DNA from: Spirochaetes bacterium GWF1_51_8
Lineage (GTDB): Bacteria; Spirochaetota; Brevinematia; Brevinematales; GWF1-51-8
Assembly (NCBI GenBank): GCA_001829415.1
Contig: MIBE01000032.1
Location: 123,141 to 138,544 of the forward strand
DNA length: 15,404 bases
Reading direction: 5' to 3'
Of this stretch, positions 2,990 through 7,953 are shown one piece after another. The position numbers and the translations under genes were made by a program. A model generated the notes under the pieces. The model was not told where the DNA came from, made no database searches, and saw only the letters and a program-made list of their open reading frames with translations. Within the stretch, counting starts at the first letter, position 1, and the number at the start of each line of letters is the position of its first letter.

Positions 2990-3025
2990 TCCGCTTCAAC
3001 CCGTGTGTTTTATAAGGAATCGATA

Positions 3026-3490
3026 ATGACCGATTACCATGAAATATCCGAACTTCTCCCGATGAAACCTGAAGAACTAATAATTGTTGAAAAAAAGTAT
3101 CGTAGTGCGAAGCGCTTCAGGCTCTTTTTTATCCTGTTCCAGATTATCTGGATCGGGATGATAGTCACGGGAATAGTAAATAAATTTTATCCCGTTGCGG
3201 TATTCGGCGGGCTTCTGAGTGCCGCATATTTCATATGTACTATTTACTATAATAGAAGATTAAAATTGTTCAGTGAGGATTTGGACGAGCGGAATGTAGA
3301 AGTCATAAAAGGTACGGTGGGGGAAAAAAGGATTAAACCCGGGCGTGTTTTCAGATTTTTTACAATCAGCATAAACGGTAAAAAATACGATCTTCCCCGT
3401 AGGCTTTACACTCAGGTGATTGCCGGGACGGAAGTCACTATCCCTGTCGCGAGACACTCGCGGATTGTTCTATTACGGGAAAACCTTTAA
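3026..3490 (+). CDS. Hypothetical membrane protein: two TM helices plus a beta-rich C-terminal domain
   Basis: Two adjacent hydrophobic helices (FRLFFILFQIIWIGMIVTGIV and VAVFGGLLSAAYFICTIYY) are followed by a ~80-aa soluble domain. AAGGA (3014-3018) lies 7 nt before ATG 3026, so this is preferred over the track's GTG 3005. GC is visibly lower than in neighbouring genes (22/60 hand-counted for 3061-3120). No family recognised. Confidence 0.55.
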   Translation: MTDYHEISELLPMKPEELIIVEKKYRSAKRFRLFFILFQIIWIGMIVTGIVNKFYPVAVFGGLLSAAYFICTIYYNRRLKLFSEDLDERNVEVIKGTVGEKRIKPGRVFRFFTISINGKKYDLPRRLYTQVIAGTEVTIPVARHSRIVLLRENL

Positions 3491-3526
3491 AAACCCTGTT
3501 TTTTTCTCGTTTTTATATGCGTTTTC

Positions 3527-3604: not shown

Positions 3605-4264
3605 ATGAGAACAAAGATTCTCGTAATGGCGATTTTCGGAATGATGATGATGTCGGCGAACGGATTCGCGACGGATTATGTCCCCGAAGATTTGACGATC
3701 GGCGGGGGAAAGCAGTCTCTGCTGACCCTGAAGGAACAGTTCTTCAAGACATCCGACCGCGACCAGCAGGTGATTATTGTGAAGACGATCAATAAGCACA
3801 CCAGCACGGATAAGTTCGCGCTTCTGGCCGAGATTGTCGAGTTCGATGTCCGCACGGACAAGCTGGGCAACTTCTGTCATCCCGATGCGGTTTTGATCGC
3901 GCTGGAAGCATTAGTCCAGACCAAAGACCCTAAGTGGGAAACAATTTATTTCAATCTGATCAACAAGTACGACAACACCAAGGTCAGGATGACCGCGGCT
4001 AAAGGCCTCGCGTTGATCGGAAGCCCCAACATGGTTCCCAAACTCGTCAACATGATTAAAAACGAATTGAGCTATAAGAATTTCCGTGAAGACAACCAGA
4101 AGATGGTCGCGGACGATATGGTGGTCGAGGCGATTGTGATGGCGCTCGGCGAGATCGGCGATCCCCGCTGTTTCCCCGCCCTGCTCGAGATAGTGACCGT
4201 CCAGAACCACCGTTTCCAGACTATTCAGGCCGCATGGAACGCGATGGAGAAGCTTCAGTGGTAA
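3605..4264 (+). CDS. Secreted HEAT/PBS-lyase-like repeat protein
   Basis: Signal peptide MRTKILVMAIFGMMMMSANGFA. Helical repeats carry HEAT-like signatures (AAKGLALIGSPNMVPKLVNMI; ALGEIGDPRCFPALLEIV). RBS AAGGAG lies 7 nt upstream. The C-terminal ~60 aa are paralogous to the next gene. Confidence 0.75.
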   Translation: MRTKILVMAIFGMMMMSANGFATDYVPEDLTIGGGKQSLLTLKEQFFKTSDRDQQVIIVKTINKHTSTDKFALLAEIVEFDVRTDKLGNFCHPDAVLIALEALVQTKDPKWETIYFNLINKYDNTKVRMTAAKGLALIGSPNMVPKLVNMIKNELSYKNFREDNQKMVADDMVVEAIVMALGEIGDPRCFPALLEIVTVQNHRFQTIQAAWNAMEKLQW

Positions 4265-4277
4265 TAGGAGAGTGATC

Positions 4278-4718
4278 ATGAAGAGGCTCTGGCTCCCGGC
4301 TTTCCTTTTGATTCTCGCTGTATCCGGCTTTGCTGAAGAGAAGCCGAAGGTTTCACTCACGGACGAGGTCAATAAGTCATACAGGGTTTTACTCGACCTG
4401 AACAACACTTTTGAGGATAGAAAGAAAGCGGCCGCGCACCTGAAAGACATGTTTGTCAACGGTAAGGACGAGACGGTGATCGACGCGATTGTCGATCTCC
4501 TTCTCTACGCTTACGACCAGAGCAATTACAAGGAAGAGAACGATAAGGAATATAAAAGCGACATGATCGCTCTCGAATTGATCCAGATACTGGAACTTTC
4601 AGGCGACCCGAGGATATTTCCCGCCCTGCTCAATATCGTAGTAAAACCGAACCACGCCCAAGCCACTATTATGGAGGCGTGGAAAGCGATCAAGATGATA
4701 AAATGGAAGGATAAATAG
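4278..4718 (+). CDS. Secreted HEAT-like repeat protein, a shorter paralog of the upstream gene
   Basis: Signal peptide MKRLWLPAFLLILAVSGFA. The C-terminus ELSGDPRIFPALLNIVVKPNHAQATIMEAWKAIKMIKW aligns with GEIGDPRCFPALLEIVTVQNHRFQTIQAAWNAMEKLQW of the 3605-4264 product. GGAG (4267-4270) lies 7 nt before ATG 4278, preferred over GTG 4272. Confidence 0.7.
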   Translation: MKRLWLPAFLLILAVSGFAEEKPKVSLTDEVNKSYRVLLDLNNTFEDRKKAAAHLKDMFVNGKDETVIDAIVDLLLYAYDQSNYKEENDKEYKSDMIALELIQILELSGDPRIFPALLNIVVKPNHAQATIMEAWKAIKMIKWKDK

Positions 4719-4727
4719 GAGGTTACT

Positions 4728-5183
4728 ATGTATAGAATATTCATCACCCTCGTAATAGGAACCGTGTTCGGCGCGGTATTGCTGTCATGCGGAAGCGATC
4801 CTGTCAAACCGAACGGGGGAGATACCAATAAAGTGGTTACAGCCGATAAAACGAACAGCGCCGTAGTCCAGCCCGTAACTAAAGATAAATTCGACGACAC
4901 GGACTACAAGAATGTTATCGCCGTGCTCAAGACCGCGCTCAATGCCGAAAAGAATAACCCGTCCTCGCTCAATAAGCTCGATTCCGGTAAGGCGTTCGCT
5001 CTCGTGGCGAAGTTCATCAAGCTGAAACTCAATGTAAAGGAATACGGATTTTCCGCGGGCGATATAGACACCTATAAGGCGCAGGCGAAGAAGAAGTTTA
5101 AAGAGATTTTAGAAGACCCTACGGCGGCGAAAGACACTAAGGAAAAGGCAACCGCCGAATCCGCGAAAGTAGACCAAATCTAA
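4728..5183 (+). CDS. Lipoprotein, Lys/Ala-rich helical
   Basis: Signal peptide with lipobox (GAVLLS-C-GSD). AGGAGG lies 5 nt upstream, and the gene starts 9 nt after the previous stop. A strong terminator follows. Confidence 0.7.
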   Translation: MYRIFITLVIGTVFGAVLLSCGSDPVKPNGGDTNKVVTADKTNSAVVQPVTKDKFDDTDYKNVIAVLKTALNAEKNNPSSLNKLDSGKAFALVAKFIKLKLNVKEYGFSAGDIDTYKAQAKKKFKEILEDPTAAKDTKEKATAESAKVDQI

Positions 5184-5197
5184 CTCGATATTCTATA

Positions 5198-5225
5198 GGG
5201 CGTGTTTCGGCACGCCCTTTTTTTA
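5198..5225 (+). terminator. Rho-independent terminator of the HEAT-HEAT-lipoprotein operon
   Basis: Perfect 7-bp GC-rich stem GGGCGTG (5198-5204) / CACGCCC (5211-5217), a 6-nt loop TTTCGG, then a run of 7 T. It starts 14 nt after the stop at 5183. Confidence 0.8.
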
Positions 5226-5241: not shown

Positions 5242-5364
5242 ATGACTTCACTTTGGCAGATGATCTCACCCCATTTGACGACGATAGGGATAATCGCGGG
5301 AGCCGCGGCAGTGATAGCCATAATGATTGTTGTCATAGTACGGCTTCGGAAGGAAAACAAATAG
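5242..5364 (+). CDS. Candidate small single-pass membrane peptide (40 aa), below the ORF-track cutoff
   Basis: My translation: MTSLWQMISPHLTTIGIIAGAAAVIAIMIVVIVRLRKENK*. GGGAGGA (5231-5237) lies 4 nt before the ATG. It has one hydrophobic helix plus a basic tail and is paralogous to the next mini-ORF. Caveat: it begins 17 nt after a strong terminator and I see no promoter. Confidence 0.4.
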   Translation: MTSLWQMISPHLTTIGIIAGAAAVIAIMIVVIVRLRKENK

Positions 5365-5383
5365 GGGTTCGCCGGTGTTCGGG

Positions 5384-5491
5384 ATGTTCGAAGGAATAGA
5401 GACTTTTTTCGTACTAATCGGTTTGGCCGGGTTCGTGATTGTCACCGTGATCGTAGTAGTCATTGTAAGGGTGTCGCGGAAAAAGAGTTAG
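5384..5491 (+). CDS. Candidate small single-pass membrane peptide (35 aa), tandem paralog
   Basis: My translation: MFEGIETFFVLIGLAGFVIVTVIVVVIVRVSRKKS*. It has the same architecture and a similar C-terminus (VVIVRVSRK vs VVIVRLRK) as the 5242-5364 product. The RBS is weak. An in-frame GTG at 5375 is an alternative start. Confidence 0.35.
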   Translation: MFEGIETFFVLIGLAGFVIVTVIVVVIVRVSRKKS

Positions 5492-5573
5492 AGTAACAGA
5501 ACGCCTTTTTCGATGCCCTTCACCGGCAGGTTGTCTGATCCCTAGTGTGGGAACGGGATAACCGCGCGTTTTT
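5488..5573 (-). pseudogene. Decayed duplicate of the radA 3' end (last ~27 codons plus stop)
   Basis: Minus-strand translation 5573->5488 gives KRAVIPF PH*GSDN LPVKGIEKGVLLL*. The authentic RadA C-terminus (6708->6607) is KRAVIPF QQKGIKPPDGLSV LPVKSIEEGIALL*. The nucleotide blocks match ~22/26 and ~30/39 by hand alignment, with a net 18-nt deletion. Both copies end in TAA. Similarity stops abruptly at 5573/5574 vs 6708/6709. Confidence 0.7.
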
Positions 5574-6606
5574 ATTCCTGTGATTACTTTTCCAGATACT
5601 GATTTTCAATCTGAAAAACGGTACGAACTTTTCCAACAAACCACAGATGAATGACTCTAACCGAATGTGAAAAATCGATATCATATTAAAAACATGGAGT
5701 GAAAAACGGAGAAAAGAATGAAAAAATACTTGCTGCTCATTTGCATGAGCTTAATCGCACAGAAGGCATTTCCCTTCCAGTATCATTTCCTCAATACGGA
5801 AACCAGCCGCAAGGAAGTACTCCTGCTGCTGAAAGAAGCGGGTGTGCCGGAAGAGGACTTGAAGATATGGAAGACCTTGGTAGAGAAATATTATCAGAGC
5901 ATCGATTTTGTGAACGTTACCAAGAAAGGATGGCAAAATTCCGGTTCAACCGATGATTATTTTAAGAAGACTTTCAACTGGGATGGATTGTTTAACTGCC
6001 GGATGTCCTGTTTTTTGTTGGTTCACGGATTGGTCGGTTTGGATAAATTTCAACGGAAAAGCAACCCGATGCCCCATCTTGAAAATGAAATCGGGTCGCT
6101 CAAGGAAATAACCGGTATAGAGTTAACCGATAAAGAAAAGGATATTTACCGCAGCCTGTTTTACGGAGTAACTCTGCCTATACAGAAGATTGACGATTCT
6201 ATATTTGAAAAGACGGAAAACTTCTTCCAGGTGTGGTGGAAAAAGGAAGGTTTTACCTTTCCTCAAAACGAGAACCTGAAAATTGTATTTGTCCTGATTG
6301 TCGAGCCCCAGCAAAAATATGCCAGCGCGGACCACGTGGCCCTCTTGCTAAAAAAAGATAAAGATCTGTACCTGATTGAAAAACCCACCTATTTCAGCCC
6401 GCCTACGGTAAGCAAGTTTGAAAGTTATGAAGAACTCGGCGAGTTTCTCTATGAGCCTTTCGAGGACTGGGTTGAAGCGAAGGGAGAAAAAGGGATAGCG
6501 GTAATGCTCAACGATAAGATAGTCTGGAAACGGATTATCGGGAATCAAGAATAACCATAACAGTTTTGTATCGTGATCATCACGGCAGTCCGGTTGAGAA
6601 AAAGCG
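5574..6606. other. Putative inserted low-GC segment bounded by the radA 3'-end duplication
   Basis: It lies between the radA 3' relic (5488-5573) and the intact radA 3' end (6607-6708) and carries one gene. Hand-counted GC is 22/60 (5701-5760) and 23/60 (6181-6240), against 33/60 in radA (6781-6840). No recombinase gene is present. Confidence 0.45.
5718..6554 (+). CDS. Orphan secreted protein of unknown function, with a possible Cys-His hydrolase-like arrangement
   Basis: GGAG (5707-5710) lies 7 nt before the ATG. Signal-peptide-like N-terminus MKKYLLLICMSLIAQKAFPF. The 278-aa ORF is uninterrupted and low in GC. Candidate catalytic-type motifs are FNCRMSCFLLV and ADHVALLL...DLYLIEK. Its size and pattern vaguely recall DUF4300-type secreted proteins, but that is from memory and unverified. 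Confidence 0.7.
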   Translation: MKKYLLLICMSLIAQKAFPFQYHFLNTETSRKEVLLLLKEAGVPEEDLKIWKTLVEKYYQSIDFVNVTKKGWQNSGSTDDYFKKTFNWDGLFNCRMSCFLLVHGLVGLDKFQRKSNPMPHLENEIGSLKEITGIELTDKEKDIYRSLFYGVTLPIQKIDDSIFEKTENFFQVWWKKEGFTFPQNENLKIVFVLIVEPQQKYASADHVALLLKKDKDLYLIEKPTYFSPPTVSKFESYEELGEFLYEPFEDWVEAKGEKGIAVMLNDKIVWKRIIGNQE

Positions 6607-7953
6607 TTAAAGAAGCGCGATCCCCTCTTCGATGCTTTTCACCGGCAGAACGGACAGGCCGTCGGGCGGCTTGATCCCTTTCTGCTGGAACGGGATGACC
6701 GCGCGTTTGAACCCCAGCCGTTTCGACTCCTGGAGCCGTTTCTCCATCCTGAATACCGGGCGGACCTCTCCGGTCAGCCCCGCTTCCCCGAAAACAATCG
6801 TATCCAGCGCCGAGGGTTTGTTCTTGAGCGACGAGTAGACCGCGAAAATGACCGCGAGGTCGAGCGCGGGGTCTTCGATCTTCAGGCCGCCCGTGATATT
6901 GACATAGACGTCGGACGCGGAAAGGTTCGCGCCGAGTTTTTTCTCCATGATCGCCGCGAGCATCGAGAGACGGTTGAGGTCGATCCCATCGGCGGCGCGG
7001 CGGGGATAGTTGAACTGCGACGCGGTACATAGCCCCTGTATCTCCACAGGGAATACGCGGTTCCCTTCGATCATCGGGAAAATCGCCACGCCGGAGACCT
7101 CGCCGGAATGGATCGAGGTGAACGCGGTCGAGATATCCTCGATCCCTGTCAATCCGCTCTCGCCCATCGTAAAAAATCCCACCTCGTCGGTAGAAAAGAA
7201 ACGGTTTTTCAGCGAACGTAAAATTCTGTAATAACCCCGGCTGTCGGTTTCGATATACAGCACGGTATCGACAAGGTGCTCGACTATTTTCGGCCCGGCG
7301 ATATCGCCGCCTTTGGTGATATGGCTGACTAAAAAGAGCGGGATACCCAGCCCTTTGGAGAGCGAGATGAGTTCGTGAGCGGACTCGCGCACCTGAAGGA
7401 CGCTTCCGGGCAGGGACGCGTAACGGGGCGAGTAAAGGGTTTGGAGCGAGTCGGCGAAAAGGATGTCCGGCTTATGCGTATCGATCTGCGAGACGACGTG
7501 TTCGAGGTTGTTGTCGTTGAGGAGATAGAGCCCGGCGGTCTTGATTCCGAGTCTCGCCGCTCGCGACTTGACCTGCGCGTTGGACTCCTCGCCGTTGATA
7601 TAGAAGACTTTACGGCCGACCGAAAGGGACGCGGCGGTCTGAAGAAGCAGGGTGGATTTCCCGATTCCCGGCTCGCCGGAGAGAAGCACCGCCTGCCCGG
7701 GTACGATCCCGCCCATCGCGCGGTCGAACTCCCCGATTCCGGTGGAGAAACGCGAGCTTTCGGAGTACTCGACCTTGTCGATGGCGATAGGGCCGGTTCC
7801 GGGGGTGTCATGCACGGATACCGCGGTATCGGCGGGAGACTCGACCTCTTCGACGAACGAGTTCCACTCGCCGCACTGGGGGCATTTACCGAGCCACTTG
7901 GTCGTTTTATATCCGCATTCCTGGCAGAGGAATACGCTGCGGGTTTTAGCCAT
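6607..7953 (-). CDS. radA: DNA repair protein RadA/Sms
   Basis: N-terminal zinc finger CQECGYKTTKWLGKCPQCGEWNS, Walker A GEPGIGKSTLLLQ, RadA-specific motif LKNRFFSTDEVGFF (a KNRFG variant), and a Lon-protease-like C-terminal domain (YVNITGGLKIEDPALDLAV, GEAGLTGEVRPV). Confidence 0.95.
   Translation of the reverse strand: MAKTRSVFLCQECGYKTTKWLGKCPQCGEWNSFVEEVESPADTAVSVHDTPGTGPIAIDKVEYSESSRFSTGIGEFDRAMGGIVPGQAVLLSGEPGIGKSTLLLQTAASLSVGRKVFYINGEESNAQVKSRAARLGIKTAGLYLLNDNNLEHVVSQIDTHKPDILFADSLQTLYSPRYASLPGSVLQVRESAHELISLSKGLGIPLFLVSHITKGGDIAGPKIVEHLVDTVLYIETDSRGYYRILRSLKNRFFSTDEVGFFTMGESGLTGIEDISTAFTSIHSGEVSGVAIFPMIEGNRVFPVEIQGLCTASQFNYPRRAADGIDLNRLSMLAAIMEKKLGANLSASDVYVNITGGLKIEDPALDLAVIFAVYSSLKNKPSALDTIVFGEAGLTGEVRPVFRMEKRLQESKRLGFKRAVIPFQQKGIKPPDGLSVLPVKSIEEGIALL

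Follow-up and report, generated by a model that had tools for sequence, protein, structure and literature searches.

Genomic islands, prophages and integrative and conjugative elements that are flanked by attachment (att) sites share a recognizable layout, in which direct repeats of the end of a target gene bracket DNA of lower guanine-plus-cytosine (GC) content and foreign appearance, the target gene itself is intact and relatives have the empty site. Islands with dusA-specific integrases provide an example of elements that enter the end of a gene and restore it with the copy that they carry (PMC4482086). Here we analyse a locus of this appearance at the 3' end of radA (sms), in a stretch of 15,404 nucleotides (nt; hereafter the window) of contig MIBE01000032.1 from an uncultured Brevinematales (Spirochaetota) population of Rifle groundwater, named "Spirochaetes bacterium GWF1_51_8" at NCBI. 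A single gene of the DUF4300 family (Pfam PF14133) separates the intact radA in this locus from a second, decaying copy of the radA end, and this relic abuts a short convergent reading frame that we call mini-ORF2 (coordinates in Table 1). It is close to certain that the junction between radA and mini-ORF2 has received an insertion together with a duplication. The account that we favour, and that taken as a whole we consider to be right with somewhat better than even probability, is that of a single duplicative insertion, illegitimate in nature and guided by microhomology.

The resemblance to att-flanked islands has its limits. The island here is a single gene in about 1 kb of DNA with no integrase nearby, its repeats are ~75% identical, with indels and no clean core of identical bases, the two of them come from the host lineage and reach past the stop codon, and the one close homologue of the inserted gene is not bracketed by such repeats. 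A literature search for radA as an integration target gave nothing directly relevant. Transposons and insertion sequences also flank their insert with direct duplications of target DNA, but the duplications known from them measure 2-14 bp, whereas the one described here is of ~100 bp. Scans of the main open reading frames (ORFs) against Pfam and NCBIfam brought up neither an integrase nor a transposase in the window, and a tRNA search was equally negative; candidate inverted repeats at the termini of the insert (5571-5596 / 6523-6548) were rejected as not significant (p = 0.35). An earlier note on this DNA, made from the letters alone, had likewise seen no integrase, transposase or inverted terminal repeats in the island.

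The duplication is evident from local alignment, in which positions 5479-5571 align with 6598-6708 with a score of 45 against 15.4 +/- 2.2 (maximum 25) in 1000 shuffles, that is ~13 standard deviations over the shuffled sequences, and a separate repeat search of the window recovered the same pair. The best-conserved block (21 of 22 bases, 5550-5571 / 6687-6708) lies at the repeat boundary, other blocks being equally conserved. Read on the minus strand from 5571, the left copy yields KRAVIPFPH, an in-frame stop, GSDNLPVKGIEKGVLLL and a second stop, the working RadA ending in KRAVIPFQQKGIKPPDGLSVLPVKSIEEGIALL and a stop, and the relic is a net 18 nt shorter than the working end. The imperfect direct duplication that the earlier note had proposed is thus real, and so are the RadA C-terminus, the internal stop and the deletion that it had quoted. 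Its edges of the similarity required one correction: that at 6708 stands, but the edge that had been placed at 5573/5574 lies at 5571/5572, as the lysine codon AAA at 5571-5569 corresponds to 6708-6706 and the peptide reads from 5571. Also, the two copies do end in TAA as had been noticed, but their similarity does not stop there and continues for ~9 nt (GAAAAAGnG), bases that form the final codons of mini-ORF2 at the left copy and a non-coding remnant at the right one. The TAA of the relic overlaps the TAG of mini-ORF2 by 2 nt (TTAG), with which the convergent stop-on-stop arrangement is retained at the relic, the working radA end lying 1.1 kb away. A candidate leftward extension of the repeat further into mini-ORF2 (5433-5445 against 6571-6583), which takes in the 13-bp palindrome that the earlier note had correctly located next to the right junction, matched at 11 of 13 bases and was not significant (p = 0.19).

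That the left copy should be conserved for a function, as a terminator or antisense regulator for instance, or should owe its similarity to chance, appears extremely improbable to us. Its position in the 3' untranslated region of mini-ORF2, where it is antisense-like to the radA end and is followed by a T-run, would suit such a role. Against this, the left copy is missing from the closest syntenic relative, it carries an in-frame stop and indels, its similarity to the radA end far exceeds that of the shuffled sequences, and searches for Rfam RNAs, terminator-like sites and tRNAs found none at the relic or in the spacers.

The site without the insert is preserved in one of the relatives of this population. 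A scan of one genome per species gave two close relatives, L008 and L009, with RadA proteins 78-79% identical to that of the window, and several others at 54-57%. L008 (Brevinematales DeMMO6_14, contig JAGVBZ010000020, assembly GCA_020059465.1; RadA 78% identical) is syntenic with the window on both sides, with exbB, the receptor gene, lapA and radA on one of them and two hypothetical genes, the HEAT gene, cmk and the genes for prephenate dehydrogenase (PDH) and DAHP synthase on the other. Between radA and its 152-amino-acid (aa) gene L008 has two mini-ORFs only and no DUF4300 gene, and its radA (ending in GIALIG and the stop TGA) directly overlaps the second mini-ORF (ending in RRKKSSD and the stop TAG) by 11-12 nt. 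The DUF4300 gene is missing after radA in L009 too. No second copy of the radA end was found in L008 or L009, the alignment scores in L008 being within the range of the shuffles, and none of the relatives examined lacks the DUF4300 gene while carrying the relic. Two proposals of the earlier note find their support in this empty site, namely that the 2-nt overlap of the stops in the window is the original convergent gene junction, and that the locus is an insertion scar in which the relic is the displaced ancestral end of radA.

Four-way alignment of the relic and the working copy with the radA ends of L008 and L009 informs on the origin of the two copies. Both window copies have AAA where L008 and L009 have AAG, GT[C/T]ATCCCGTTC where these have GT[A/G]GTGCCGTAC, GGTGAA at the point where these have GTAAA, and GCATCGAA instead of GTATCGA[G/C]. 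Moreover, both window copies encode Pro-Phe (TTC), and Pro-Tyr (TAC) is found in L008, L009 and five of six more distant RadA proteins, the sixth (L014) diverging at this point. Because tyrosine is the state of L008, L009 and the outgroups, phenylalanine is the derived state and was present before the duplication. The shared derived states and the common tail past the stop show that both copies come from the radA/mini-ORF2 junction of this lineage itself, or from that of a very close relative, and that they arose after the split from L008 and L009. The working end is therefore no mimic of foreign origin brought in by a distant element, and the suggestion of the earlier note that a replacement end arrived with the insert finds no support in the form in which it was made.

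The left junction preserves a trace of how the insert may have been joined to radA. Nucleotide homology between the window and L088, the locus on a 284,628-nt contig that carries the 81%-identical homologue of the DUF4300 gene, extends over 5655-6554 only (L088 9905-10810, 80.5% identity) and ends exactly at the stop codon. Positions 10802-10823 of L088 read CAGGAATAA followed directly by AGACGCGCAGTTA, the first part being the last three DUF4300 codons (Gln-Glu-stop) and the border between the parts being the exact end of the window/L088 homology. This 22-mer is identical at 20 of 22 bases to the left junction 22-mer of the window; when used as a pattern it has one match in the window at up to three mismatches, with 0.00 expected, and the match straddles a structural boundary in the window as well as in L088. 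The 13 nt past the L088 stop agree at 11 of 13 positions with the radA codons for Lys-Arg-Ala-Val (AAACGCGCGGTTA). The relic thus begins, to the base, where the DUF4300-type stop ends. A join at a microhomology between the 3' flank of the cassette and radA would leave such a pattern and would account for the start of the duplication at codon 415; illegitimate recombination is a better fit here than recombination at att sites.

The boundary of the insert and that of the duplication coincide to the base (5571/5572), which argues for a single event. It is on this point that the data speak against two independent events, a small tandem duplication of the radA/mini-ORF2 junction and a later, unrelated insertion of the DUF4300 gene between the copies. 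Selection would tolerate a tandem duplication of the overlap, which would provide the junction with its only non-coding DNA; the shared boundary with its microhomology between cargo flank and radA is nevertheless what a single event leads one to expect, and we judge the two-event scenario very unlikely. The 13 nt after the L088 stop also enter into another alternative, according to which the insertion predates the split, L008 lost it by recombination of the ~100-nt repeats, with a clean junction restored by the loss, and the excised cassette re-inserted beside xerD together with 13 nt from the relic. Precise deletion is possible between direct repeats as long as these, and by hand comparison AGACGCGCAGTTA is nearer to radA of the window (11/13) than to that of L008 (8/13). 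This alternative, however, needs gene conversion or parallel change to account for the derived phenylalanine in both window copies and not in L008, L009 or the outgroups, it is faced with the fact that L009 too is without DUF4300 after radA, and the product of an excision by repeat recombination should carry the full ~100-nt repeat and not 13 nt of it. We consider it improbable, if a trifle less so than two separate events.

Under the single insertion that we favour, the history of the locus would be as follows. In the ancestor, radA and mini-ORF2 would have been convergent, with overlapping stop codons and zero intergenic DNA. After the split from the closest sampled relatives, ~1.03 kb (5572-6597) with a DUF4300 gene for a secreted protein, probably under its own promoter, would have been inserted there, and the insertion would have duplicated ~93-111 nt of the junction, comprising the last 33 codons of radA and ~9 nt of mini-ORF2. 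Because the ancestral genes overlapped, an insertion would be tolerable only with the overlap duplicated. Selection would then have kept one gene end per copy: the left copy still completes mini-ORF2 while its radA part decays, and the right copy completes radA, its mini-ORF2 part having decayed. As to the joining, we infer that the cassette's 3' flank (A[G/A]ACGCGC[A/G]GTTA) paired with the radA codons for Lys-Arg-Ala-Val and was joined illegitimately, either by template switching during replication or by integration of a circular intermediate that carried a copy of the junction, with no resident site-specific recombinase taking part.

Illegitimate recombination guided by microhomology includes the homology-facilitated type of transformable bacteria and replication template switching, described as fork stalling and template switching (FoSTeS) and as MMBIR (microhomology-mediated break-induced replication). 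To our knowledge these mechanisms have been described mostly from amplifications, deletions and laboratory transformation, and we know of no fixed single-gene insertion at overlapping convergent stops among their products. Homology-facilitated illegitimate recombination is mentioned in work on B. subtilis (PMC6382021), and gene amplification has been treated in starving E. coli (PMC3161906). The locus resembles such products in the 11/13 microhomology between cargo flank and target, which is found at the left junction only, in the target duplication that flanks a templated insertion, in a possible short inverted segment at one junction and in the lack of a dedicated recombinase, and it is unlike them in that the right junction and the donor flank in this genome are untraced. 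Campbell-type integration, in which a single crossover of circular DNA with a homologous chromosomal segment leaves the insert between direct repeats of that segment, yields exactly this layout, each complete gene using one repeat. It needs, on the other hand, a circle that joins ~100-140 nt of the radA/mini-ORF2 junction to the cassette, and neither such a molecule nor a plasmid backbone was seen.

The relatedness of the inserted gene points to an exchange later than the split of the lineages. Its assignment to DUF4300 is solid (E = 1.4e-27, 97.4 bits against a gathering cutoff of 27, profile positions 2-251 of 252), and it has one close homologue only (P0002/P0322, 81% identical), that of L088, among 5.8 billion proteins and 1.84 billion cluster representatives, the next being at most 35% identical. 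At conserved residues the third-position identity of the DUF4300 pair is 0.71, against 0.44-0.59 in seven flanking orthologue pairs (0.52 when pooled; Fisher test, p = 1e-7 for the comparison with the pooled pairs and p = 0.006 for that with radA by itself). Given this lower synonymous divergence, the common ancestor of the DUF4300 pair is later than that of the genomes, which indicates that the cassette was exchanged between the lineages after their split. The GC content of the gene (42.7%; 54% at third codon positions, GC3) is clearly lower than that of radA (58.7%, GC3 76%) and of the window (mean 50%), as the earlier note had estimated from hand counts.

The homologue in L088 lies between a gene for a 307-aa tyrosine recombinase (XerD) and an ABC transporter. 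We rejected this recombinase as a dedicated integrase of the cassette: it is a housekeeping XerD with thousands of homologues at E <= 1e-40, several of them named XerD and the best outside the family ~45% identical, and a Rifle contig (L175) has its 86%-identical orthologue without an adjoining DUF4300 gene. The exact L088 XerD and the exact RadA of the empty site co-occur in JGI sample 3300007351, both sequences being in NCBI too, which suggests that they belong to one organism and that the genome with the empty site most likely carries its own DUF4300 copy beside xerD. The earlier note had asked whether the gene travels next to a recombinase or always next to a radA 3' end; its sole close homologue is next to a recombinase, but a housekeeping one, and is neither next to radA nor accompanied by radA-end repeats. 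The distant homologues of DUF4300 (~35% identity), in other Brevinematales and elsewhere, were found in unrelated contexts with no radA or recombinase nearby. Tandem DUF4300 genes were observed on a short metagenome contig (L174, 179-997 and 1020-1838), local paralogue pairs being thus present in some genomes.

Several observations weigh against a single microhomology-guided insertion. The fragment at the left junction has an orientation opposite to that of the intact DUF4300 gene, from which it is 140 nt distant, the gene being on the other strand, so that a one-step join is insufficient and several template switches (a fold-back-like structure), or a later inversion or duplication of part of the cassette, must be assumed. 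The extension of this fragment past the 22 nt (TCTGGAAA...) is weak (p = 0.02 against L088 and 0.05 against the window's own gene), and the minus-strand ORF 5520-5684, considered as a decayed inverted DUF4300 C-terminus, was rejected for showing no similarity at the protein level (p = 0.24-0.49). The right junction (6555-6597) matches no source, and no donor flank was traced in this lineage. The empty site is known from a single relative with ~75% nucleotide identity: none nearer than L008 and L009 was found in the scan of one genome per species, the metagenome scan gave nothing above 57% RadA identity, and the search of 5.8 billion proteins gave no RadA between 78% and 100% identity to that of the window. 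Finally, the best-conserved block of the duplication lies at its boundary, precisely where the core of an att site would be expected.

This last observation favours the main rival, under which the locus is what remains of an integrative element with site specificity for the 3' end of radA and with an attP that carried a radA end from a closely related host. Later deletions would have removed its integrase and all else of the island but DUF4300 and the decayed attL and attR. The geometry fits well, with direct repeats of a gene end, the gene itself intact and the site empty in a relative; the cargo is low in GC and was exchanged between lineages; and the junction formed by CAGGAATAA and the 13 nt recurs beside the L088 DUF4300 gene, where it could be a core retained at a secondary site. 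Nevertheless, neither the island nor the 15.4-kb window contains any recombinase and no larger version of the island was found, the recombinase beside the L088 copy being the housekeeping XerD discussed above. The 20.8 kb of L088 contain one other core site within two mismatches (18025, on the opposite strand), which does not flank the cassette, and both repeat copies carry the lineage-specific states and the mini-ORF2 tail. Of the features of such an element, the locus shows the geometry and the empty site; a recombinase, or the same element at the same target in other genomes, was not found. We regard this rival as unlikely and give it perhaps one chance in four.

A more adventurous proposal is that DUF4300 constitutes a single-gene mobile cassette devoid of a recombinase, which would move among Brevinematales by way of the short core A[A/G]ACGCGC[G/A]GTTA after its stop. 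A tyrosine recombinase of the host, for example Xer, would mobilise it in trans, and the resemblance of radA codons 415-418 to the core would be fortuitous. Such a cassette, were it to exist, would represent a minimal integrative cassette of a new kind, with a loose parallel in Xer-exploiting elements or integron cassettes; as a whole, the proposal seems to us very doubtful. Returning to the single illegitimate insertion, the scar belongs to an ordinary class of genome events, which it displays in an unusually clear form. It offers a clean natural example of gene insertion at convergent genes with overlapping stops, in which the empty site, the decaying relic and a junction recording the join are all preserved, and of a gene for a secreted protein that appears to be exchanged among related uncultured spirochaetes with no visible mobile-element machinery. 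This may be useful for reading small "orphan" islets in metagenome-assembled genomes, and it opens no new biological question.

Members of DUF4300 are exported proteins. An AlphaFold2 model of the protein from the window reached a predicted local distance difference test (pLDDT) score of 89 and a predicted template modelling (pTM) score of 0.86, and its sole significant structural match was PDB 9ow2, the C. difficile surface protein CD630_07380, which a profile search retrieved as well (E = 5e-49). Two residues, Cys94 and His206, are nearly invariant in 23 DUF4300 homologues, and a fold search returned, below significance, papain- or transglutaminase-like Cys-His enzymes (among them vasohibin, viral deubiquitinases, SseI and NAT). 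That the protein might be a secreted cysteine hydrolase is a reasonable guess and not a finding. No phage or defence signal was detected for the DUF4300 gene or its neighbours in the window.

Table 1. Features of the radA junction and of the surrounding genes, with positions in the window
Feature	Position	Strand	Description
Upstream genes, in order			DAHP synthase, PDH, cmk, 161-aa hypothetical (3005-3490), HEAT-repeat protein (3605-4264)
Two hypotheticals	4272-4718 (148 aa) and 4728-5183 (151 aa)		After the HEAT-repeat gene
mini-ORF1	5242-5364	+	40-aa single-pass membrane peptide with basic tail, from the ORF list
mini-ORF2	5375-5491, ATG at 5384	+	~35-aa single-pass membrane peptide ending in RKKS and stop
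Left copy	5479-5571	-	5488-5571, decaying remnant of radA codons 415-448; 5479-5487, inside mini-ORF2
Left junction 22-mer	5559-5580	-	CAGGAATAA followed by AAACGCGCGGTTA; DUF4300-type Gln-Glu-stop fragment joined to the first relic codons
Left spacer	5572-5654		GC 35%; origin untraced; 5572 to ~5596 may be an inverted DUF4300 3'-end remnant
Cargo cassette	5655-6554	+	63-nt upstream region (putative promoter) and DUF4300 gene
DUF4300 gene	5718-6554	+	278 aa, signal peptide
Right spacer	6555-6597		Contains palindrome CGTGATCATCACG at 6572-6584; no terminator-like site
Right copy	6598-6708	-	6607-6708, working radA 3' end (codons 415-448 and stop); 6598-6606, remnant of mini-ORF2 tail
radA (sms)	6607-7953	-	Intact, 448 aa
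Genes beyond radA, in order			LapA-domain gene, TonB-dependent-receptor-like gene, exbB-exbD-exbD-tonB

The identity of RadA is well established (TIGR00416 equivalog, E = 7e-150, 499.6 bits against a cutoff of 403.05, residues 1-443), and both the RadA and the DUF4300 proteins of the window have exact matches on JGI contig Ga0209416_1001705. Further sequences of the same population vary around the insert. One of its contigs (L005) has a 27-nt deletion in the left spacer (5618-5644), at the same place where L003 has a scaffold gap, and this deletion polymorphism suggests that the left spacer is free of constraint. The breaks of three independent assemblies (L003, L004 and L006) all fall on base 6608 of the window, within the stop codon of radA. 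After its gap, L003 (2625-2666) continues with an unrelated stretch of 33 nt, TCTTGTAGTGCCACTCGAAGACCGGAGGCGTGA, which meets radA at 6614, a join that would swap the last radA codon and the stop for an open reading frame. This 33-mer is absent from the window, the fetched loci and viral contigs, and the L003 join is either a strain-level variant in structure of this very junction or an artefact of assembly.

The 3' flank of radA is a synteny breakpoint in the second relative as well. In the place that DUF4300 takes in the window, immediately downstream of radA, L009 carries a ~400-nt non-coding element (~6290-6720, minus strand) that is 75% identical, with fully conserved blocks, to positions 13835-14240 of L088, where it lies in 640 nt devoid of genes that separate an SLT gene from a patatin gene. 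The element has no Rfam match, and the consensus fold of the two sequences comprises 75 pairs, 13 of them with compensatory changes. A new structured RNA is one possible identity of the element, a mobile element without coding capacity another.

Among the other genes of the window, only the 161-aa gene at 3005-3490 is lower in GC than DUF4300, and it is the lowest of the window (40.7%, GC3 45%). It is a second lineage-specific single gene, with predicted membrane segments, located between cmk and the HEAT-repeat gene and missing in the syntenic L008, where ~100 nt separate these two genes; it had no match in Pfam, NCBIfam, PADLOC or PHROGs, and no duplication flanks it (2990-3520). The 148-aa hypothetical protein and the HEAT-repeat protein gave tblastn cross-matches to each other's L008 orthologues (40-43% identity over 60 aa), and the former is in all likelihood a HEAT-repeat paralogue that has diverged.

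Between the 151-aa gene, which it follows directly, and the mini-ORFs, a strong hairpin resembling an intrinsic terminator (5197-5218; nine pairs, six of them G-C) is followed by a T-run, for which reason the mini-ORFs would need a promoter of their own or read-through. The product of mini-ORF2 matches a GGIII-CTERM-like (C-terminal transmembrane) profile below the cutoff (E = 3e-4, 20.6 bits against 22). The pair of mini-ORFs in L008 (7503-7694 and 7333-7461) is conserved with respect to the window in position and architecture, including basic C-termini, and barely in sequence.

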